Virus record (IMG/VR): IMGVR_UViG_2534682074_000009
Origin: a virus
Taxonomy: Duplodnaviria > Heunggongvirae > Uroviricota > Caudoviricetes
Length of the DNA stretch: 22,175 bases
Strand: one strand, 5' to 3'
The notes beneath the pieces are model-generated. The model was not told the origin of the DNA. It ran no database searches and saw nothing but the letters and a program-made list of their open reading frames with translations. Positions 1-10,549 of this stretch are shown one piece after another (the stretch's first letter is position 1; the number at the start of each line of letters is the position of its first letter). The translations under genes were made by a program, and so were the position numbers.

Positions 1-981
1 TTATAACGTCACTCCGCCTTTTAGTGGATTCAGAGCGACGGCATTTTGCAGATAGTCAGGCGCAAGGTGCGCATAGGCCATCGTCTGCTGAATGCTCGCA
101 TGTCCCAGAATCTGTTGCAGTGCGATTATATTGCCCCCATTCATCATGAAATGGCTTGCGAATGTATGCCGCAGGATGTGGGTTGCCTGATTGGGTGGTA
201 TATCAGGTTTCACTCTGCGTAAAATCCCGCAAAATTTCTCATAATCAACTTTGAATAATTTGGCGCTGGCCTCCTCTTTAACTTTTTTCTCCAGTTCCTC
301 AGAAATCGGCACGGTTCGCTTTTTACCGTTTTTGGTTTTCAGGAAGGTAACCCTGCAATTTGTAATCTGTGCTGGTTTTAGCGTGGCAACTTCCGTCCAT
401 CTTCCTCCGGTGCTCAGACATAAAAGCGCGACAAGTAAGTCATCACCAGCCAAAACATTTAACAGTTTTTCGATTTCTGCTTTTTCCAGGAACGTCATTT
501 CAGGGTTGGCCTCCGCCAGTGGCGGCAGTCCGTGAATTGGGTGTTGCCCGGAAAATTCATCCAATTGAATTAATTTTGTGAACATGCCGGATAATCGGTA
601 CATGTCACGGTTTATCGTTGCGGCACTGATACCATCACGTAGTCGCATGGAACGATAATCCATCAAAGCCCTTTTGCTCATCCTGCTCACTGGTATATCA
701 CCTATGCCGCTGATGGTTTTGAGTAGATGATTAAACTCTTTTGTTCCATGCTCGTGGTTTTGCCCGTGATATTTCCACCAGATGTCCAGCAACTCACTCA
801 AAGTCCGGCGGTCTGCTCGCTGGCCTCCCCATTCTTTCTGACTGGCATTGGCGATTGTGTATCGCTCAAATGCTAGTGCTTCAGCTTTTCTTTCGAATTT
901 CCTGCGGATGCGTTTTCCGTCGCGACCGCGAGGTCTAATGTCCACTTCATAGCGACCATCATCGAGCTTCTTAATTGCCAT
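1..981 (-). CDS. int: Tyrosine site-specific integrase (P2 Int-like)
   Basis: Stop codon is at 1-3 on the reverse strand. C-terminal region carries tyrosine-recombinase signatures (HILRHTFASHF ... LGHASIQQTMAYAHL). N-terminus MAIKKLDDGRYEVDIRP resembles P2 Int as I recall it. Start at 981 is preferred because GGAGGG lies 7 nt upstream; the six-frame ORF extends to 1011 but has no SD there. Confidence 0.9.
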   Translation of the reverse strand: MAIKKLDDGRYEVDIRPRGRDGKRIRRKFERKAEALAFERYTIANASQKEWGGQRADRRTLSELLDIWWKYHGQNHEHGTKEFNHLLKTISGIGDIPVSRMSKRALMDYRSMRLRDGISAATINRDMYRLSGMFTKLIQLDEFSGQHPIHGLPPLAEANPEMTFLEKAEIEKLLNVLAGDDLLVALLCLSTGGRWTEVATLKPAQITNCRVTFLKTKNGKKRTVPISEELEKKVKEEASAKLFKVDYEKFCGILRRVKPDIPPNQATHILRHTFASHFMMNGGNIIALQQILGHASIQQTMAYAHLAPDYLQNAVALNPLKGGVTL

Positions 982-1050
982 AAGAAAGCCCTCCGGCGCT
1001 GTATTCACCATCTTGGTAGCAAATGGTGAAAATGTAATCTTTATATAGAG

Positions 1051-1344
1051 TTAGCCAATCCTTTTCGCGGAGTGGTTGGACTCTGTTGACTCTGGCCCAA
1101 TGTGCGCGAGAGCCGGTGCGATTTGTCCTGCGTCCGGCGCGGTTTTATCTGTCATAAGCCATAGAGCATATTTTTGGAATGTGGGATGCATAGTGATTTT
1201 TAGCAAAGCTGTGCCACCGGGTTCAAAGTTTCCTCCTTCATATTTTTTAAGTGTGCTTAGCGGTAACTCTATGATTTCACAGAATTTTGATTGGCTTAGC
1301 CCTTCAGCCTCACGCAAGGCCTTAATCTTTTCGCTTAATTTCAT
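1051..1344 (-). CDS. C: Immunity repressor (P2 C-like, HTH)
   Basis: 97 aa, immediately upstream of int on the same strand and divergent from cox. The C-terminal segment GQIAPALAH matches the P2 C repressor as I remember it; the N-terminal half has an HTH-like character. Confidence 0.8.
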   Translation of the reverse strand: MKLSEKIKALREAEGLSQSKFCEIIELPLSTLKKYEGGNFEPGGTALLKITMHPTFQKYALWLMTDKTAPDAGQIAPALAHIGPESTESNHSAKRIG

Positions 1345-1403: not shown

Positions 1404-1480
1404 ATTGATTTGAGAATAAACCAGCATCTAAACGGTTTTGAGTGGTTTAGAAAGGGCTGGATCCTATGAGGGTACCATAT

Positions 1481-1753
1481 ATGGACGCTGAAAATTATGT
1501 GATTCAGTATCCGCTTGATGCGGTTCATGTGGATAAATTTGCTGATTTATTAGGGAAGCCAAAGACAGCCGTCAGTGAAATGGTGAAGGCAAATAAATTA
1601 CCAATTATTGAATTGCGTGATCCTTGCAAACCGAAGGCTCGTGCCGGTGAAAAATGGGTTTTCATTCCTGAGTTTAATCGCGCTGTACGTGAGGCGTTTT
1701 ATAACCGACCGGTTGAACAGCGTGATGCATGGCTTTTGTGGATGGGGTTGTGA
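1481..1753 (+). CDS. cox: Cox-like excisionase / switch regulator
   Basis: About 90 aa, first gene rightward of the switch. Motifs PIIELRDP ... GEKWVFIPEFN ... RDAWLLWMGL parallel P2 Cox as I recall it. GAGGG lies 8 nt upstream of the ATG at 1481; the alternative ATG at 1466 has poorer SD spacing. Confidence 0.8.
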   Translation: MDAENYVIQYPLDAVHVDKFADLLGKPKTAVSEMVKANKLPIIELRDPCKPKARAGEKWVFIPEFNRAVREAFYNRPVEQRDAWLLWMGL

Positions 1754-2486: not shown

Positions 2487-2711
2487 ATGCATACAGTTTC
2501 TGAAAATCAGTGCGGTAAATACGCATTACTGCTGCAACAGGCCAGAACCGAAGCACAGGCCGACGCTGCGACGCGCTTTTCTTCTCATCTTGACGCCATG
2601 ATTCGCCACATCACAAAGGCGGAGTTATCCCGCGTGGAGATAGTTGAGCTGCTCAGTCAGGAGTCGGAAAAATTTCACAATATCGGATTGTCTCGCGGGG
2701 AGGTGCTTTGA
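2487..2711 (+). CDS. Hypothetical early protein (P2 orf80 position)
   Basis: 74-aa ORF in the compact early operon; AGGAG-like SD (ctggagaaagtcATG); its end overlaps the next ORF start. Confidence 0.55.
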
Positions 2712-3013
2712 TGTCCTGTTCTCGTTCGGTTGTATTACTGAATAACGCCTTAAAAATCGCCGTTATGAAAAATGGTGATTTGTCTCTTATTCAACTTGGT
2801 ATTGATAAAGAGAAGCGCGAAATAACTGAATCTGTTATCGCGATTTATCAGAGTGAATTAAACCTCCTGTCTGATGTGGTCAATTTACTTGTTAAACGCG
2901 CTGTATTCCACAAGCAAATTTCCTCAGTGGATGAACTGACAAAATTAACGACAGAACTCGCCAGTTATTGCGCTGATGAATTTAAGAAGCTGAACGACAA
3001 AAGGAGCTGGTAA
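2708..3013 (+). CDS. Hypothetical early protein (P2 orf81 position)
   Basis: 101-aa ORF, start overlaps the previous stop; AAGGAG lies before the following gene. Confidence 0.55.
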
Positions 3014-3237
3014 TGCCGGACAACGTGGATTTTATTCAGGAACAACAGGCTGAATTACTGGAGCGCCAGATTAACGCGGCAAGGGTAAAACATTGCGGTG
3101 TTTCTGCGCTGGTTTGCGAAGAGTGTGACGCGCCAATACCTGCTGCCCGTCGTGCGGCTTATCCGTCAGCCACGCGTTGTGTTTCCTGTCAGTCAGTCTT
3201 TGAAGCAAAAAACAAACATTACCGGAGAACGGCATGA
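3013..3237 (+). CDS. TraR/DksA-family C4 zinc-finger protein (P2 orf82 position)
   Basis: CEEC ... 17 residues ... CVSC (C-x2-C-x17-C-x2-C) in a 74-aa protein; AAGGAG SD directly upstream. Confidence 0.7.
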   Translation: MPDNVDFIQEQQAELLERQINAARVKHCGVSALVCEECDAPIPAARRAAYPSATRCVSCQSVFEAKNKHYRRTA

Positions 3238-3509
3238 GTATTCGTATTGAAATTGGCGAACGTTATGTCGTTACCAGTGACAGCTTTCAGTTTATTCTCC
3301 ACGAGAAAAAGAGAGCGGAAAGCGGTAAAAACGCCGGTCAGGAATGGCTGGCGGTGGTTGGTTATTACCCGAAATTAGGCCAGCTCGTTTCCGGCCTGAT
3401 GCATCACGATATTCTGACCGGAAGCGCAAAATCTTTTGCTGATTTAAACGCGCAGGTTGAGCAACTCAGCAAGCGTTGTTCAGAGGCTTTTGGCTCATAT
3501 GGCCGTTAA
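3234..3509 (+). CDS. Hypothetical early protein (P2 orf83 position)
   Basis: 91-aa ORF whose start overlaps the previous stop and whose end overlaps the gene A start. Confidence 0.55.
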   Translation: MSIRIEIGERYVVTSDSFQFILHEKKRAESGKNAGQEWLAVVGYYPKLGQLVSGLMHHDILTGSAKSFADLNAQVEQLSKRCSEAFGSYGR

Positions 3510-5775
3510 AGCCTCCGGGCGTTTTGTCCCTCCGTCAGCATTTACCGCAGGCACCGGTAAGGCGTTTACCGGTGCTTATGCATGGAACGCGCCACGCGAG
3601 GCTGTCGGGTGCGAAAGACCTCTTACACGTGACGAGATGCGTCAGGTGCAAGGTGTTTTATCCACGATTAACCGCCTGCCTTACTTTTTGCGCTCGCTGT
3701 TTACTTCACGCTATGACTACATCCGGCGCAATAAAAGCCCGGTGCACGGGTTTTATTTCCTCACATCTACTTTTCAGCGTCGTTTATGGCCGCGCATTGA
3801 GCGTGTGAATCAGCGCCATGAAATGAACACCGACGCGTCGTTGCTGTTTCTGGCAGAGCGTGACCACTATGCGCGCCTGCCGGGAATGAACGACAAGGAG
3901 CTGAAAAAGTTTGCCGCCCGTATCTCATCGCAGCTTTTCATGATGTATGAGGAACTCTGCGATGCATGGGTTGATGCGCATGGTGAAAAAGAATCGCTGT
4001 TTACGGATGAGGCGCAGGCTCACCTGTATGGTCATGTTGCTGGCGCTGCACGTGCTTTCAATATTTCCCCGCTCTACTGGAAAAAATACCGTAAAGGACA
4101 GATGACCACGAGGCAGGCATATTCTGCCATTGCCCGCCTGTTTAACGATGAGTGGTGGACTCATCAGCTTAAAGGCCAGCGTATGCGCTGGCATGAGGCG
4201 TTACTGATAGCTGTCGGGGAGGTCAATAAAGACCGTTCTCCTTATGCCAGTAAACACGCCATTCGTGATGTGCGTGCGCGCCGCCAGGCAAATCTGGAAT
4301 TTCTTAAATCGTGTGACCTTGAAAACAGGGAAACCGACGAGCGCATCGACCTTATCAGTAAGGTGATGGGCAGTATTTCTAATCCTGAAATTCGCCGGAT
4401 GGAGCTGATGAACACCATTGCCGGTATTGAGCGTTACGCCGCCGCAGAGGGTGATGTGGGGATGTTTATCACGCTGACCGCGCCGTCAAAGTATCACCCG
4501 ACACGTCAGGTCGGAAAAGGCGAAAGTAAAACCGTTCAGCTTAATCACGGCTGGAACGATGAGGCATTTAATCCAAAGGATGCGCAGCGTTATCTCTGCC
4601 GTATCTGGAGCCTGATGCGCACGGCATTCAAGGATAATGATTTACAGGTCTACGGTTTGCGAGTCGTCGAGCCACACCACGACGGAACGCCGCACTGGCA
4701 TATGATGCTTTTTTGTCATCCACGCCAGCATAACCAGATTATCGAAATCATGCGTCGCTATGCGCTCAAAGAGGATGGCGACGAAAGAGGAGCCGCGCGA
4801 AACCGTTTTCAGGCAAAACACCTTAACCGGGGCGGTGCTGCGGGATATATCGCGAAATACATTTCAAAAAACATCGACGGCTATGCACTGGATGGTCAGC
4901 TCGATAACGACACCGGCAGGCCGCTGAAAGACACTGCAGCGGCTGTTACCGCATGGGCGTCAACGTGGCGCATTCCGCAATTTAAAACGGTTGGCCTGCC
5001 GACAATGGGGGCTTACCGTGAACTACGCAAATTGCCTCGCGGCGTCAGCATTGCTGATGAGTTTGACGAGCGCGTCGAGGCTGCACGCGCCGCCGCAGAC
5101 AGTGGTGATTTTGCGCTGTATATCAGCGCGCAGGGCGGGGCAAATGTCCCGCGCGATTGTCAGACTGTCAGGGTCGCCCGTAGTCTGTCGGATGACGTTA
5201 ACGAGTACGAGGAAGAAGTCGAGAGAGTGGTCGGCATTTACGCGCCGCATCTCGGCGCGCGTCATATTCATATCACCAGAACGACGGACTGGCGCATTGT
5301 GCCGAAAGTTCCGGTCGTTGAGCCTTTGACTTTAAAAAGCGGCATCGCCGCGCCTCGGAGTCCTGTCAATAACTGTGGAAAGCTCACCGGTGGTGATACT
5401 TCGTTACCGGCTCCCACACCTTCTGAGCACGCCGCAGCAGTGCTTAATCTGGTTGATGACGATGTTATCGAATGGAATGACCCGGAGGTCGTGAGGGCGC
5501 TCAGGGGCGCATTAAAACACGACCGGAGAACGCCAAACCGTCAGCAAAGAAACGGAAGCCCGTTAAAACCGCATGAAATTGCACCATCGGCCAGACTGAC
5601 CCGGTCGGAACGATTGCAAATTACCCGTATCCGCGTTGATCTCGCTCAGAACGGTATCAGGCCGCAACGATGGGAGCTTGAGGCGCTGGCGCGTGGCGCG
5701 ACCGTAAATTATGACGGGAAACCTTTCACTTATCAGGTCGCTGATGATTGGCCGGGATTTTTGTTACCCATTTGA
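3499..5775 (+). CDS. A: Rolling-circle replication initiation endonuclease (P2 gpA-like)
   Basis: About 758 aa. Contains the histidine motif PHWHMMLF and the paired catalytic tyrosines in GYIAKYISK, characteristic of P2 A-type initiators. Start 3499 (MAVKASGRF) chosen within the longer six-frame ORF. Confidence 0.9.
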   Translation: MAVKASGRFVPPSAFTAGTGKAFTGAYAWNAPREAVGCERPLTRDEMRQVQGVLSTINRLPYFLRSLFTSRYDYIRRNKSPVHGFYFLTSTFQRRLWPRIERVNQRHEMNTDASLLFLAERDHYARLPGMNDKELKKFAARISSQLFMMYEELCDAWVDAHGEKESLFTDEAQAHLYGHVAGAARAFNISPLYWKKYRKGQMTTRQAYSAIARLFNDEWWTHQLKGQRMRWHEALLIAVGEVNKDRSPYASKHAIRDVRARRQANLEFLKSCDLENRETDERIDLISKVMGSISNPEIRRMELMNTIAGIERYAAAEGDVGMFITLTAPSKYHPTRQVGKGESKTVQLNHGWNDEAFNPKDAQRYLCRIWSLMRTAFKDNDLQVYGLRVVEPHHDGTPHWHMMLFCHPRQHNQIIEIMRRYALKEDGDERGAARNRFQAKHLNRGGAAGYIAKYISKNIDGYALDGQLDNDTGRPLKDTAAAVTAWASTWRIPQFKTVGLPTMGAYRELRKLPRGVSIADEFDERVEAARAAADSGDFALYISAQGGANVPRDCQTVRVARSLSDDVNEYEEEVERVVGIYAPHLGARHIHITRTTDWRIVPKVPVVEPLTLKSGIAAPRSPVNNCGKLTGGDTSLPAPTPSEHAAAVLNLVDDDVIEWNDPEVVRALRGALKHDRRTPNRQQRNGSPLKPHEIAPSARLTRSERLQITRIRVDLAQNGIRPQRWELEALARGATVNYDGKPFTYQVADDWPGFLLPI

Positions 5776-6033
5776 GTAAAAATACAGCGTGATTTTATAT
5801 GTCTTTGAATGGATTATGCGAAGCACCTCTAAGGTAGATGAGGAGCAATAGCGTGTTGAATCAGAAGGCTAAATTGTATTGAATCGTTAGCATGTAATTG
5901 AAGGCAGCTATTTGATTCGAGTCATAAAAGAGCATCTATTTCGGTTAATAAAACCATTGCGAGTGACTTTATGTCGAAGCATAATTCATCTCGAGCGAAG
6001 TCTTGCTAGTCTTTCATCGGATTGATGACGGGC

Positions 6034-6067
6034 GCAAAAAAACCACCCTGGCAGGTGGTTTTTTTGT
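6034..6067. terminator. Bidirectional intrinsic terminator
   Basis: Seven A (6036-6042), stem ACCACCCTG / CAGGTGGT, seven T (6059-6065). Can terminate plus-strand transcripts leaving A and the minus-strand mini-ORF transcript. Confidence 0.55.
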
Positions 6068-6077
6068 TTGAAGCATA

Positions 6078-6191
6078 CTAAAGAAAAATACTTACATGGA
6101 TATTACTGACGTTTACTGACAAACCACTCGGACTACCATATGGATAGCCAAAGAGGGCCAGAACGAGAATGCAGTAATAGCACTTCTTCAT
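6078..6191 (-). CDS. Candidate 37-aa hydrophobic small protein (MKKCYYCILVLALFGYPYGSPSGLSVNVSNIHVSIFL)
   Basis: Absent from the ORF track because it is short. Perfect AGGAGG 4 nt upstream of the ATG (reverse complement of 6196-6201); stop at 6078-6080 is directly followed on the minus strand by the 6034-6067 terminator. Hydrophobic N-terminal half. Confidence 0.3.
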   Translation of the reverse strand: MKKCYYCILVLALFGYPYGSPSGLSVNVSNIHVSIFL

Positions 6192-6847
6192 ATCGCCTCC
6201 TGTAAGCAGAGGGCAATTTCCGCCGATATATGCGCTTCTAAGGCGGAGTGACTATTGAGCGAAGTCTTGCCCTGAAATAATGCTCTGTTTAAACGCAAAG
6301 TGATCTGGCATATCACCGAACAGAGGACCTGAACAACACAACATATAGTATGTCGTTGTTTCTGGTTGCATTTTATGTTGTGTAATACTGGTTTTGCATC
6401 AAGGATGTTTGAGCTTTTTTTGATATAGCTCAAAGTAAAAAGCAGAGACTACGGATGATAAGGTCTTGAAAGCAATGTAAATTTTTTAAAGTTGTGAGTG
6501 GCTAGAAATGCACAGTTTCAATATGGCGGATTTAAACAAGTAATTAAAAATAGCGACATAAATTCAAATAAAATCATTAAGTTGCGTTTTCTGTGGAAAC
6601 TTCGGTGACTCTGAAATTTTCTTTTAGTGTCGCTGAGGTTTAACAACTCGCTGCGCAAGTAGTTAGTGTTTTTTTAATTCAATATTCTGATTTATAAGGT
6701 TTTTTATAAATCGTGGGCTGGTTGCGCGTATTCATCTCGTGTTATCAGCAAAGATAAGCTCTATATGCAGAACTGAATGCATATATGATGTCGAAAATGT
6801 TATGGGAAAACGTGGATTAGTGTTATAGTAATGGCTGAAAAACAGCC

Positions 6848-6907
6848 TTGACATAAAATAACAATTGTGATATGGCTGTGCATACTTAACTTTTTTAACG
6901 TAGGAGG
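6848..6907 (+). promoter_or_regulatory. Candidate sigma70 promoter and RBS for the metallopeptidase gene
   Basis: Consensus -35 TTGACA (6848-6853), 17-bp spacer, weak -10 TATGGC (6871-6876); AGGAGG (6902-6907) 5 nt before ATG 6913. Confidence 0.35.
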
Positions 6908-6912
6908 CAACC

Positions 6913-7398
6913 ATGAGCTATGCAGCTAAAAAACTGCTTGACCGCTATTGGGATCGCCGACTACCTGTCGATCCGTTTAAGCTTGCTAAAGCGTGGGGTG
7001 CTCGTGTTGAAGCACTTGAGGAATCGGCTTATAACAACGATGGGTTAAGCGGTCTGGCTGTCATCAAAAAGGGTGTCCATAGGATTTATTTTGATTCTAG
7101 TGAACATTCTAATCGTCAACGTTTTACTGTTGCACACGAGTTAGGTCATCATGTGCTGGGGCATACCCAGGACGGAGAGTACCATCGGGATAATGTCGGG
7201 AATTATTCAACAGGTGCTCGTGATTACCGTGAGGTTGAAGCAAACAAGTTTGCTGCTGAGTTGTTAATGCCTGAGTCTGCTATACGTCAATTGGTATCCA
7301 GAGAAGGTATTGATAGCACTTTGAGATTAGCAAGCATCTTTAATGTATCAGAAGCCGCTATGCATTGGCGCTTAAAGAGCTTAGGAATGGCTTATTAA
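6913..7398 (+). CDS. ImmA/IrrE-family (COG2856 / DUF955-like) zinc metallopeptidase, stand-alone
   Basis: 161 aa. HEXXH motif in FTVAHELGHHVLGH and the downstream EANKFAAELLMP signature typical of this family. Strong SD. No adjacent XRE/HTH partner ORF is visible. Confidence 0.8.
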   Translation: MSYAAKKLLDRYWDRRLPVDPFKLAKAWGARVEALEESAYNNDGLSGLAVIKKGVHRIYFDSSEHSNRQRFTVAHELGHHVLGHTQDGEYHRDNVGNYSTGARDYREVEANKFAAELLMPESAIRQLVSREGIDSTLRLASIFNVSEAAMHWRLKSLGMAY

Positions 7399-7425
7399 TT
7401 AGCCTTTAACTTTTAACCTGTTTAA

Positions 7426-7464
7426 AATCACCTTTACGTTTGTACATGTAAGGGTGATTTTTTT
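7426..7464 (+). terminator. Intrinsic terminator between the peptidase and membrane-protein ORFs
   Basis: 11-bp stem AATCACCTTTA / TAAGGGTGATT (one G-U pair), loop containing palindrome TACATGTA, then seven T (7458-7464) abutting ATG 7465. Confidence 0.5.
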
Positions 7465-8064
7465 ATGGCTGATATTGATTTATCTGGACAGTCCCCAGAG
7501 CAAGGAACCACTCCTAAGGGCGATTTAGATCCTGATATCCTTATAAGGCGAGATAGACGGGATGGTATAGAGCGTAGAAGTATGCGATTAGTGCTCTCTG
7601 CCGTTGTGCTTTGTTTTGCTTGTACATTTCTATGGCAGGGGCTTAACTTTGCTTTGGCTGTTGGAAATGGCTTGCTGGAAGCGAAAAGCAGTATTGCCGC
7701 AGCGATAACACAAAAAGTAGATACACAAACTTGTGTTTCAGCAGAAAAATGTTCTGCTTTATCTTCGGATCCGAAGATGGCTGATGAGAGGATAACACCA
7801 TCTTCAGACACTAATAAAGTTAGAAAATCTATTTCTGGTTTATCCACCGATTGGTTATCGGCCAGTTCTCTAATAGCTATTGTTGCATTCATCCTTGGTG
7901 TGGGTTTAACTTTGCTTTTGACTCTTCTTAAATCAGCATTTCAACACCCGACAGATAAAGACTTTAGAACAAAGTCGACATCTAATACTATTGAGTTGGC
8001 CACGCCAATCAGTGAATTAATAATTGGTGTTCTGAATATAATTAAAGACAAACTATCTAAGTAA
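7465..8064 (+). CDS. Predicted small membrane protein with two hydrophobic helices
   Basis: 199-codon ORF in AT-rich DNA. Two ~22-residue hydrophobic segments (LVLSAVVLCFACTFLWQGLNFALAV and LIAIVAFILGVGLTLLLTLL). Start uncertain (weak SD; internal Met at 7582 possible). Followed by the 8107-8139 terminator. Confidence 0.45.
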   Translation: MADIDLSGQSPEQGTTPKGDLDPDILIRRDRRDGIERRSMRLVLSAVVLCFACTFLWQGLNFALAVGNGLLEAKSSIAAAITQKVDTQTCVSAEKCSALSSDPKMADERITPSSDTNKVRKSISGLSTDWLSASSLIAIVAFILGVGLTLLLTLLKSAFQHPTDKDFRTKSTSNTIELATPISELIIGVLNIIKDKLSK

Positions 8065-8106
8065 AGCATTAGTTGTGATTTTTTATTGGTTTTAGTGATA
8101 ATACAT

Positions 8107-8139
8107 CTCCAGTACTTATTGTTACTGGAGAGTATTTTT
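8107..8139 (+). terminator. Intrinsic terminator in the convergent gap
   Basis: Stem CTCCAGTA / TACTGGAG (8107-8114 / 8123-8130), 8-nt loop, then agtattttt. Sits between the plus-strand membrane ORF and the stop of the minus-strand 313-aa gene. Confidence 0.45.
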
Positions 8140-8146
8140 AGTCGTT

Positions 8147-9088
8147 TTATATTTTTAATGTTAGTGAATGATATTCACGAGAGTTCACGTTCGATGTGAT
8201 GTAATCGGGGGCGTTAACACCAAGAATCGCAACGAGTAATCGGCAAATTAAAGCCTGCATTTGTTGTAATATGTCATCTCCATATTGATAATTGTTAATA
8301 GTGGTAAAGCCAAGTGGTTGACCATGAAACATAGCTTCATGAAAGTTTTCATTGCGGATGTTTGTAATGTTTTTTTTGCCTGTAACCCATGATGGTCGTG
8401 GTATTCCATAAGTTTTGCAGATCCACTTCAAGCGCCTGGAGTGATTTAGAGTCTTTTCTGTACACTTGTTCTTTTCTGCCCATGTTAAAGCAAAGCAACT
8501 ATCCAGTGCCATATAAAGATACTGGAATTTTTCGAAGCTAAGGTATTGTGGGTTTTGGGATAAAAATAGTGCATGCACTATTGCTGCTATATTTATTGGT
8601 GCGTGTTTGGTTTTTGTCTCGCTAGACATGTATTTGAGTGCTAATTCTATAACCTCTTTTTCAGAGCACTTGACCAGAATAAAGTCAGTTAATTTGCTGG
8701 GTTTTATTGGGGTTGCGTCTAAAAAACCGGCATCAGTAGTTGTTAATCTTATCCCTTTGAAAAAAGACAGACACCACACAGCAAAATTGAGAGTTTCTAG
8801 TGAAGATGTATTTTTTAATTTTAGTGAGTGTGTTTTGGGTAAACCAAATACTCGTTGGCTAAAAGGCATTGTGGATATGCCTCCATTGAGGTTATATACT
8901 TCTTGGTTTCCTGGGTATATCCAACCGTTAATAACATTTCTGTGATTGTTTATAAGATTTGTTTTTTCCGCTAGACCGGGTAAAGTAAGTAAAGAAAAAT
9001 CATCAGTTTCAACGTTAACTTCTACTGGATAGTATCCAAACTCAGCTTCAATATCATTGGATTGCTGTTCGTCAACTTTACCTTGCAT
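8147..9088 (-). CDS. Hypothetical 313-aa cargo protein; possible HEPN-like (R-x4-H) domain
   Basis: Long uninterrupted ORF in AT-rich DNA; GGAG 6 nt upstream of the ATG. Same orientation and position relative to cos that tin/old occupy in P2. Single motif R245-N-E-N-F-H250 in a predicted helical C-terminal half. No family confidently recognised. Confidence 0.7.
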   Translation of the reverse strand: MQGKVDEQQSNDIEAEFGYYPVEVNVETDDFSLLTLPGLAEKTNLINNHRNVINGWIYPGNQEVYNLNGGISTMPFSQRVFGLPKTHSLKLKNTSSLETLNFAVWCLSFFKGIRLTTTDAGFLDATPIKPSKLTDFILVKCSEKEVIELALKYMSSETKTKHAPINIAAIVHALFLSQNPQYLSFEKFQYLYMALDSCFALTWAEKNKCTEKTLNHSRRLKWICKTYGIPRPSWVTGKKNITNIRNENFHEAMFHGQPLGFTTINNYQYGDDILQQMQALICRLLVAILGVNAPDYITSNVNSREYHSLTLKI

Positions 9089-9326
9089 ACATTGCTCCGG
9101 TCAAAAATAGGCTCGATAATTCTCGTAAGCCTATCATGTTCGCAAAGTATCCATTCCTGTGGATTTTGTAAATTTAAGTTGATTTGTCATTAAATAAGCC
9201 GTTGCATGCAACAAGTGAATGTTTTTGCATGCGTCGGGGATGTCCGTTCAGGCTGCGTGCGGTCAGGACTGGTGCGGATCCATAGTATCTATGCAACTGC
9301 ATTAAAACCGCCCCATGAAGCGGGCG

Positions 9327-9345
9327 GGCGAGGCGGGGAAAGCAC
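9327..9345. other. cos site (19-nt cohesive-end sequence, P2-type)
   Basis: GGCGAGGCGGGGAAAGCAC matches the P2 cohesive-end sequence as I remember it, at the expected place between the cargo region and Q, followed by a G/T-rich packaging region (9346-9480). Confidence 0.55.
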
Positions 9346-9487
9346 TGCGCGCTGGCGGTGGTGCTGATTTTATTTTTTCAGCGTCTGAGCGCGTCGTGAA
9401 GGCGCTTAGTCTGCCCGTTGAGGCGTTGGTGTGTCTGCGGGGTGTTTTGTGCGGTGGTGAGCGTGTGAGGGCGTGATGACGGGGTGT

Positions 9488-9509
9488 AAAAAAGCCGCCC
9501 GCAGGCGGC
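9488..9509 (-). terminator. Intrinsic terminator downstream of Q
   Basis: On the minus strand: stem GCCGCC / GGCGGC with 4-nt loop followed by six T (six A at 9488-9493 on plus), 6 bp after the Q stop. Confidence 0.5.
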
Positions 9510-9514
9510 GATGT

Positions 9515-10549
9515 TCAGCCGTTGTCAGTGTCCAGTGAGTAGTTTTTAAAGCGGATGACCTCCTGACCGAGCCAGCCGTTTATCTCGCGGATCCTGTCCT
9601 GTAGCGGGATAAGCTCATTGCGGACAAAGACCTTTGCCACTTTCTCAATATCACCCAGCGACCCGACGTTCTCCGGCTTGCCGCCCATCAACTGAAAGGG
9701 GATGCGGTGCGCGTCCAGCAGGTCAGCGGCGCTGGCTTTTTTGATATTAAAAAAATCGTCCTTCGTTGCCACTTCACTGAGCGGGATAATTTTAATGCCG
9801 TCGGCTTTCCCCTGCGGGGCATAGAGAAACAGATTTTTAAAGTTGTTGCGGCCTTTCGACTTGACCATGTTTTCGCGAAGCATTTCGATATCGTTGCGAT
9901 CCTGCACGGCATCGGTGACGTACATGATATATCCGGCATGAGCGCCGTTTTCGTAATACTTGCGGCGGAACAGCGTGGCCGACTCATTCAGCCAGGCAGA
10001 ATTAAGGGCGCTGAGATATTCCGGCAGGCCGTACAGCTCCTGATTAATATCCGGCTCCAGCAGGTGAAACACGGAGCCGGGCGCGAAGGCTGTCGGCTCG
10101 TTGAAGGACGGCACCCACCAGTAAACATCCTCTTCCACACCACGGCGGGTATATTTTGCCGGTGAGGTTTCCAGTCTGATGACCTTACCGGTGGTGCTGT
10201 AACGCTTTTCCAGAAACGCATTACCGAACACCAGAAAATCCAGCACAAAGCGGCTGAAATCCTGCTGCGAAAGCCACGGATGCGGGATAAACGTTGAAGC
10301 CAGAATATTGCGTTTGACGTAAATCGGTGAGCTGTGATGCACGGCAGCACGCAGGCTTTTTGCCAGACCGGTAAAGCTGACCGGTGGCTCATACCATCTG
10401 CCGTTACTGATGCACTCGACGTAATCCAGAATGTCACGGCGGTCGAGTACCGGCACCGGCTCGCCAAAGGTGAATGCTTCCATTTTCGGGGCGCTGGCGG
10501 TGATTGTTTTTGCCGCAGGTCGCGGTGTTTTCCCTTTTTTCTTACTCAT
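9515..10549 (-). CDS. Q: Portal protein (P2 gpQ-like)
   Basis: 344 aa, first late gene next to cos on the minus strand, overlapping the P stop; size and position as in P2. Confidence 0.9.
   Translation of the reverse strand: MSKKKGKTPRPAAKTITASAPKMEAFTFGEPVPVLDRRDILDYVECISNGRWYEPPVSFTGLAKSLRAAVHHSSPIYVKRNILASTFIPHPWLSQQDFSRFVLDFLVFGNAFLEKRYSTTGKVIRLETSPAKYTRRGVEEDVYWWVPSFNEPTAFAPGSVFHLLEPDINQELYGLPEYLSALNSAWLNESATLFRRKYYENGAHAGYIMYVTDAVQDRNDIEMLRENMVKSKGRNNFKNLFLYAPQGKADGIKIIPLSEVATKDDFFNIKKASAADLLDAHRIPFQLMGGKPENVGSLGDIEKVAKVFVRNELIPLQDRIREINGWLGQEVIRFKNYSLDTDNG

Follow-up and report, generated by a model that had tools for sequence, protein, structure and literature searches.

A P2-like prophage encodes an ImmA/IrrE-type metallopeptidase as the first gene of a mobile two-gene cassette with a two-pass membrane protein

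The DNA analysed here, referred to as the window, is a stretch of 22,175 nucleotides (IMG/VR record IMGVR_UViG_2534682074_000009) whose gene content is that of a P2-like prophage. Its cargo hotspot carries a gene for a small M78 (ImmA/IrrE-type) zinc metallopeptidase and, next to it, a gene for a protein with two transmembrane (TM) segments. The protease is not a stand-alone enzyme. It is the first gene of a widespread and uncharacterised mobile cassette of two genes, in which an M78 protease is followed by a two-TM protein. We propose, with a probability of roughly 45%, that the pair is a protease-governed membrane effector used in conflicts of phages and other mobile elements, and that the membrane protein would be the cognate substrate of the protease. 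The two genes are as follows.

6913-7398, plus strand: minimal M78 (ImmA/IrrE-type) zinc metallopeptidase, 161 aa, cytoplasmic, ATG start (Pfam, AlphaFold2, Foldseek)
7465-8064, plus strand: two-pass inner-membrane protein, 199 aa, predicted N-in/C-in, phrog_8096 (hydropathy, AlphaFold2, alignment)

The pairing was established by comparing M78 loci. One genome per species was scanned, the best 80 loci were kept and the neighbouring open reading frames (ORFs) were called; a neighbour-joining tree was then computed from 86 distinct M78 sequences, drawn from the 80 genome loci and from loci found earlier. The window protease falls in a clade of 25 tips, 22 of which have an intact two-TM ORF downstream (119-256 aa, at a spacing of -17 to +70 bp). 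The remaining three carry a truncated remnant of the partner, a truncated protease without a partner, and no partner, respectively. Elsewhere in the tree the tightly coupled gene mostly lies upstream, and in 24/34 cases it encodes an XRE-family helix-turn-helix (HTH) protein (HTH_3 or HTH_31). No XRE HTH gene was found among the upstream neighbours of the loci with a downstream two-TM gene (0/19, L015-L094), and the two kinds of partner thus exclude each other (0/19 vs 24/34, Fisher p = 2e-7). The clade linked to the two-TM protein has signature residues of its own, W13, D14, P21 and R92, while the catalytic residues are common to the whole tree and HELGH is found in both M78 clades. A search that starts from the partner gives the same picture. 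An M78 gene lies directly 5' of the partner gene in all three look-ups (Vibrio, Acinetobacter and an Enterobacter plasmid) and in 16/16 viral contigs recovered with a partner profile, that is, in 19/19 loci. The original prediction had regarded the protease as solo, a description that these counts overturn. It was correct that the next gene encodes a membrane protein, identified here as the 199-aa two-TM protein by hydropathy and AlphaFold2.

A second small M78 group (L043, L054, L076, L079, L086 and L089), which includes Mycobacterium, Rhodococcus, Oscillibacter and Acidobacteria, encodes downstream a protein with a long soluble N-terminal part and two TM helices close to the C-terminus. The partner swap may have taken place a second time, independently, in this group.

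The assignment to the ImmA/IrrE family, made originally from the sequence by eye, is fully borne out by profile searches. The protease matches Pfam PF06114 (Peptidase_M78) with E 3.8e-21 and 75.6 bits (cut-off 22) and phrog_87 ("metallo-protease") with 1.4e-32, and both catalytic motifs are invariant in an alignment of 41 homologues.

7135-7149, plus strand: HELGH, residues 75-79 (H75, E76, H79), zinc-binding and catalytic motif (invariant in 41 homologues)
7231-7272, plus strand: E107-VEANKFAAELLMP, third zinc ligand motif, E-x-x-A-N (alignment)

The invariant positions are H75, E76, H79, E107, A110, N111, F113, A114, A115 and P120; E107 corresponds in position to E128 of CapP (PMC13228613). 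The gene is under strong purifying selection (dN/dS, the ratio of non-synonymous to synonymous substitution rates, 0.04-0.12). Structure prediction followed by Foldseek, which had been put forward as a check on the family, agrees: the AlphaFold2 model (mean confidence, pLDDT, 87.4) retrieves CapP (7t5t) and IrrE/PprI (3dti and 8sln) at probability 1.0 and E 5e-6 to 1e-4. The template modelling score is about 0.6 on the query and 0.35-0.42 on the targets (0.37 for CapP), as only the N-terminal peptidase and helical part is matched.

ImmA is itself a minimal enzyme of about 160-170 aa, like the window protease. The characterised pairs ImmA-ImmR (ICEBs1), IrrE/PprI-DdrO (Deinococcus) and CapP-CapH share with the present pair the M78 domain, the HEXXH motif, the E-x-x-A-N ligand and the fold, and they too are two-gene units on mobile or defence loci. 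Their partner, however, is an HTH repressor, encoded upstream or fused, whereas here it is a downstream two-TM protein. In the PADLOC collection the top match of the protease is CapP (1.1e-30); RmrA (6e-17) and PD-Lambda-2_B (1.3e-6) are matched as well. In spite of that score we reject membership of the CapP group. The protease spans positions 8-153 of the 242 in the CapP profile and has no GAF domain and not a single cysteine; it therefore lacks the single-stranded DNA (ssDNA) groove and the cysteine switch, which are what activates CapP and IrrE (PMC13228613). CapP has a GAF domain, a cysteine-switch loop in those homologues that possess one, and a setting with CapH and the immune operon of CBASS (cyclic oligonucleotide-based antiphage signalling system), all of which are missing at the window locus; neither the protease, the two-TM gene nor the remaining hotspot gene matched CapH or CBASS profiles. 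Its clade has its own W13, D14, P21 and R92. PD-lambda-2 and the RmrA-type XRE-M78 fusions are likewise alike in the M78 domain and are linked to defence or to toxin-antitoxin (TA) functions, but they have a fused XRE HTH and HigB-type toxins alongside; the window pair has no HTH and no HigB, and its partner is a membrane protein.

The partner belongs to no Pfam, NCBIfam or PADLOC family. Its predicted features are listed here.

7477-7488, plus strand: D5-L-S-G8 motif in an acidic, disordered, cytoplasmic N-terminal tail, candidate recognition or cleavage site for the protease (alignment)
7588-7662, plus strand: TM1, about residues 42-66, with the basic stretch RRDRRDGIERRSMR in front (hydropathy)
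7855-7929, plus strand: TM2, about residues 131-155, AFILGVGLTLLLTLLK, glycine-rich, the most conserved segment (alignment)
7987-8058, plus strand: C-terminal cytoplasmic amphipathic helix, ELATPISELI...IKDKLSK (AlphaFold2 helix 175-198)

The basic stretch RRDRRDGIERRSMR before TM1 and the lysines and arginines after TM2 indicate an N-in/C-in topology, which places the variable loop in the periplasm; in enterobacterial members this loop has a conserved pair of cysteines. The AlphaFold2 model has helices at 23-88, 117-159 and 175-198 (pLDDT 67), and a structure search with it returned nothing below E = 1 in BFVD and no holin. Conservation is concentrated in a few places: F55, L56 and G59 of TM1, A141, G145, G147, L148, T149, L150, L152, T153 and K156 in or near TM2, and P181 and K196 of the C-terminal helix are invariant. 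The partner as a whole evolves fast, its dN being about five times that of the protease, and the long enterobacterial and the short Pseudomonas and betaproteobacterial forms are linked by hhalign with a probability of 93.5%. Against this background the N-terminal tail stands out. D5 is invariant in 38 partner homologues, and an exact DLS, as part of a D-L-S-x-G motif, occurs near the N-terminus in 10/16 lineages whose tails are otherwise unalignable (chance about 3% each, P <= 1e-6).

Diverse mobile elements carry the cassette. In the P2 phage P2DC1 and in E. coli TA280 a protease 88% identical to that of the window is followed by a homologous membrane protein. In a Salmonella island the pair sits among other defence and TA genes, including SymE and CbtA/CbeA; on an Enterobacter plasmid it lies beside other TA genes such as zeta toxin; in Aeromonas Mu-like prophages it is located between Mor and the endolysin gene, immediately 5' of the latter; and in lambdoid prophages of P. 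aeruginosa it lies directly 3' of an S24-type cI gene. It is uncommon in E. coli (50/5426 complete genomes). The P2, Salmonella island, Enterobacter plasmid and Aeromonas Mu-like loci retain a conserved block, GTAGGAGGCAACCATG, around the start of the protease gene but differ in their DNA further 5', and this block marks the 5' border of the cassette. A convergent third gene, the last in the hotspot, follows the pair in the window.

8106-8131, both strands: bidirectional terminator-like hairpin parting the cassette from the convergent ORF313
8147-9088, minus strand: ORF313, 313 aa, exchangeable hotspot cargo apart from the cassette (phrog_5937 match)

ORF313 is missing from both P2DC1 and TA280 and occurs in P2-EC67 (AM157369) beside other neighbours. 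It follows that the conserved unit is the protease with the membrane protein, and ORF313 was rejected as a third component. Genes do follow the pair in other lineages. A conserved 142-aa gene is found after it in Salmonella islands (L004-L006, 6250-6678), and a 304-aa gene in two of the three Enterobacter plasmid loci (L098 and L099; 4131-5046). Neither belongs to a Pfam family, both are missing from the window and from the Aeromonas and Pseudomonas loci, and there may be a third component in some lineages.

A pair 88% identical in its protease has already been cloned and tested, a point absent from the original prediction. Under the name "Peptidase + TM" (pFR104), Rousset et al. 2022 (Cell Host Microbe, PMC9122126) cloned the TA280 pair with its native promoter; cassette and P2 hotspot are those of the window, and the membrane protein is homologous. 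Their annotation of the two-TM protein begins at an internal start and gives it one TM, and no analysis of pairing, motif or distribution of pFR104 was reported (PMC9122126). A survey of COG2856 in 2009 gave only XRE, PIN and RelE as partners. The Rousset candidate was the only M78 system with a membrane protein that we found in the literature, where we met no paper on the pairing, the motif or the clade.

The two genes of the window, which share a reading frame, are separated by a further conserved element.

7424-7464, plus strand: 16-bp stem-loop with a U-run abutting the ATG of the membrane-protein gene, whose Shine-Dalgarno (SD) sequence AAGGGUGA lies in the 3' arm (folding)

Its minimum free energy is -25.1 kcal/mol (z -5.4), and none of 200 shuffled sequences was as stable. 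Equivalent hairpins, with differing stem sequences and compensatory changes, are present in the P2DC1, Salmonella island, Enterobacter plasmid, Aeromonas and Vibrio loci; in non-enteric lineages the genes of the pair overlap or are closely spaced in place of a hairpin. The structure resembles a terminator or attenuator and would at the same time mask the ribosome-binding site (RBS); this implies that the output of membrane protein would be much below that of the protease.

All characterised M78 proteases act on a co-encoded partner. As that partner has been swapped in this clade, the simplest assumption is that the protease has the membrane protein as its cognate substrate or regulator. We infer that the membrane protein took the place of the XRE repressor as cognate partner, and that the cytoplasmic protease would bind and cut a cytoplasmic segment of it. 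A parallel is CapP, on whose peptidase domain a helix of the substrate docks while an unwound stretch beside it is cut (PMC13228613). In the present pair the likeliest site would be D-L-S-x-G near the N-terminus, with docking perhaps by way of the C-terminal amphipathic helix. Once cut, the membrane-acting effector would change its state of activity; its synthesis would be held low by the terminator-like, RBS-burying hairpin. The cut could either activate the effector, by a gasdermin-like logic, or inactivate it, by an antitoxin logic; the two directions are both compatible with the data. The role would be a conflict function expressed in the lysogen, such as abortive infection, superinfection exclusion or another membrane effect of the kind, gated by a protease. 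Of the three roles suggested originally for the protease, the comparative data favour, if provisionally, that of triggering the neighbouring membrane protein.

Several known systems share parts of this proposed organisation. RexAB of lambda, and the pairs of a TM protein with a HAD hydrolase, a reverse transcriptase-nitrilase or a TIR protein found in P2 and P4 hotspots, are likewise small cassettes, expressed in the lysogen, in which a soluble enzyme or sensor is joined to a small membrane effector. In lambda, rexAB lies just downstream of cI, and the P. aeruginosa pair occupies the corresponding position just 3' of its cI gene. None of these systems has an M78 protease or shows sequence similarity to the cassette, and the membrane protein has no PADLOC match. 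Bacterial gasdermins are alike in concept, as an analogy: a co-encoded protease governs a membrane-disrupting protein by removing an inhibitory peptide. The gasdermin protease, however, is caspase-like or subtilisin-like and the effector differs in fold and topology, whereas here an M78 enzyme is combined with an integral two-TM protein.

The hairpin and the gene order also fit the antitoxin-first layout of a TA-like addiction module. The two-TM protein would then be a membrane toxin that excess protease continuously inactivates; cells that lost the element, or in which the protease was inhibited, would die, and the main role of the cassette would be to stabilise the mobile element, with defence secondary. 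Purely by inference, a cut at D|L would leave Leu, Tyr or Phe at the new N-terminus, as an N-degron for ClpS/ClpAP. Most enterobacterial partners have L, Y or F directly behind the invariant Asp, and Leu, Tyr and Phe are ClpS N-degron residues in bacteria. Gene order and the terminator-like, RBS-occluding hairpin favour an excess of protease, the cassette lies beside TA genes on the plasmid (zeta toxin) and in the Salmonella islands (SymE, CbtA/CbeA), and the sole locus with a truncated partner (L016) retains the protease. We nevertheless consider an addiction module, and stabilisation as the main role, unlikely. Against it stand two loci with a frameshifted protease gene next to an intact two-TM gene. 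In the complete genome of S. Infantis (CP148870.1, L102), a 1-nt deletion in a GGGG run just past HELGHHVLGH, at about window position 7156-7159, shifts the frame of the protease and leaves the two-TM gene and ORF313 intact. In a low-coverage metagenome contig (L103) one nucleotide is inserted into a TTTT run of the protease gene, again with an intact two-TM gene. Both could be real pseudogenes or homopolymer sequencing errors.

The S. Infantis genome also weighs against our own proposal of a protease-governed effector: its frameshift, if real, means that cells tolerate the membrane protein, at native expression, when the protease is absent. Three further points stand on the same side. The DLS motif is absent in 6/16 lineages. 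Pairwise distances of protease and partner are uncorrelated (Spearman 0.08), a value that says little because the partner alignment is saturated. Finally, pFR104 is placed in Table S2B among the "additional tested systems", outside the validated defence systems, for a panel of eight phages, and the three extra P2 systems reported active are others (PMC9122126); no defence by pFR104 against that panel is therefore reported.

The following landmarks were identified in the prophage around the cassette.

1-1011, minus strand: integrase
1051-1344, minus strand: XRE-type C repressor, an HTH_3 protein
1466-1753, plus strand: Cox
3457-5775, plus strand: replication protein gpA (profile match)
6847-6852, plus strand: TTGACA, a -35-like hexamer (read from the sequence)
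6902-6907, plus strand: SD sequence AGGAGG of the protease gene (sequence)
9515-10549, minus strand: portal gene Q (profile match)

The protease gene sits between gpA and Q, the old/tin position, and the location in a defence hotspot that had been predicted for it is correct: the gpA-Q interval of P2-like prophages is a hotspot of variable and often anti-phage cargo (Rousset et al. 2022, PMC9122126). In the window it contains only the protease gene, the two-TM gene and ORF313. The promoter predicted for the protease gene is upheld in part. TTGACA is present and AGGAGG is a perfect SD sequence, but the -10 element is weak (TATGGC, or TGTGATATG as an extended -10) and a consensus promoter scan called no promoter at 6847. 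The hexamer is kept in P2DC1 and not in non-P2 contexts. That no HTH partner adjoins the protease was likewise correct. We considered, and rejected, that the 1.1-kb spacer upstream might conceal an XRE gene or its remains, as HTH profiles matched none of the 9 ORFs of at least 30 aa and 27 stop-free segments of at least 25 aa in the six frames of 5776-6912; nor did a Pfam profile search detect an HTH in the gene downstream. No LexA box was found near the cassette, the count over the whole window being that expected by chance, and no other damage-response signal was found upstream of the protease gene. An Rfam scan of 5700-9600 gave sub-threshold chance matches only.

These results bear on a further account, in which the protease would act in trans, either as a Lit-like effector that cuts a host or phage protein or as an anti-repressor that cuts a remote XRE repressor, the prophage's own C or that of a competitor, and the membrane protein would serve only as its tether, sensor or regulator. 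All M78 proteases characterised so far cleave XRE repressors, the C repressor of the window (1051-1344) is an HTH_3 protein, and the partner's N-terminal motif could act as a pseudo-substrate, keeping the protease inactive at the membrane. The C repressor gene, 5.6 kb from the protease gene, is a poor candidate, because the cassette also occurs in elements with unrelated immunity (S24 cI in Pseudomonas, Mu-type repressors) or with no repressor at all (plasmids and islands). There is no adjacent XRE gene in the clade, no LexA box or damage signal upstream, and the protease does without the sensor that IrrE and CapP have in their GAF domain and ssDNA groove. An action in trans appears distinctly improbable to us, and we find no support for the processing of a host or phage target, or for cleavage of the prophage C repressor, both of which had been raised originally.

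Even less probable, in our judgement remotely so, is an accessory role in lysis timing or membrane maturation, with the two-TM protein acting as a holin-like, antiholin-like or superinfection-exclusion protein from which the protease removes an acidic N-terminal propeptide. Its N-in/C-in topology with two TM segments does resemble that of class II holins, the Aeromonas Mu-like pair, alone among those found, lies immediately 5' of an endolysin gene, and the periplasmic loop of enterobacterial members has the conserved Cys pair noted above. The window pair, however, is located about 8 kb from the P2 lysis genes, in a cargo hotspot rather than the lysis region. At 199 aa in the window and 135-256 aa overall, the partners are larger than typical holins; the pair is also found on plasmids and islands without lysis genes, and no structural match to a holin turned up.

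M78 proteases are known to act as switches through the cleavage of XRE repressors, in the induction of integrative and conjugative elements, in the radiation response of Deinococcus and in the expression of CBASS. If the protease-governed effector proposed here is real, it would extend the M78 logic from transcriptional control to the direct control of a membrane effector, and add a compact two-gene module to the conflict systems of prophages. More tentatively, the partner-swapped clade as a whole may be an unrecognised, widespread family of protease-gated membrane effectors across Proteobacteria, in which cleavage at D-L-S-x-G, possibly exposing a Leu/Tyr/Phe N-degron, would switch the effector on or off upon infection or loss of the element. 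Current annotation lumps the clade, with an "ImmA/IrrE family metallo-endopeptidase" beside a "hypothetical protein"; the lack of an XRE partner in M78 annotation marks a separate clade and is not noise. The catalytic E76, the D5-L6 motif, the glycine-rich TM2 and the RBS-occluding hairpin are handles by which this small and portable cassette can be tested.

Some minor features of the surroundings were also recorded. ORF313 has no sequence match in Pfam, NCBIfam, PADLOC or PDB, and an R-N-E-N-F-H stretch in it fits the Rx4-6H pattern of HEPN RNases. The spacer 5776-6912, which is conserved in P2 phages that carry the cassette, is non-coding except for a 37-aa hydrophobic ORF (MKKCYYCILVLALFGYPYGSPSGL...) at 6078-6191 on the minus strand, with GGAGG in front and a strong bidirectional terminator-like hairpin past its end (about 6030-6066). 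It is annotated as hypothetical in phage MET_P1_103_31 and may encode either a small membrane peptide or something like a type I toxin. Just 5' of gpA are two DUF5405 paralogues in tandem (2708-3013 and 3234-3509, plus strand). At least 10 complete E. coli chromosomes in RefSeq begin exactly at base 1 of a P2 gpA gene ("replication endonuclease"), which suggests that automated genome-rotation tools took the prophage replication gene, and not dnaA, as the marker of the origin.

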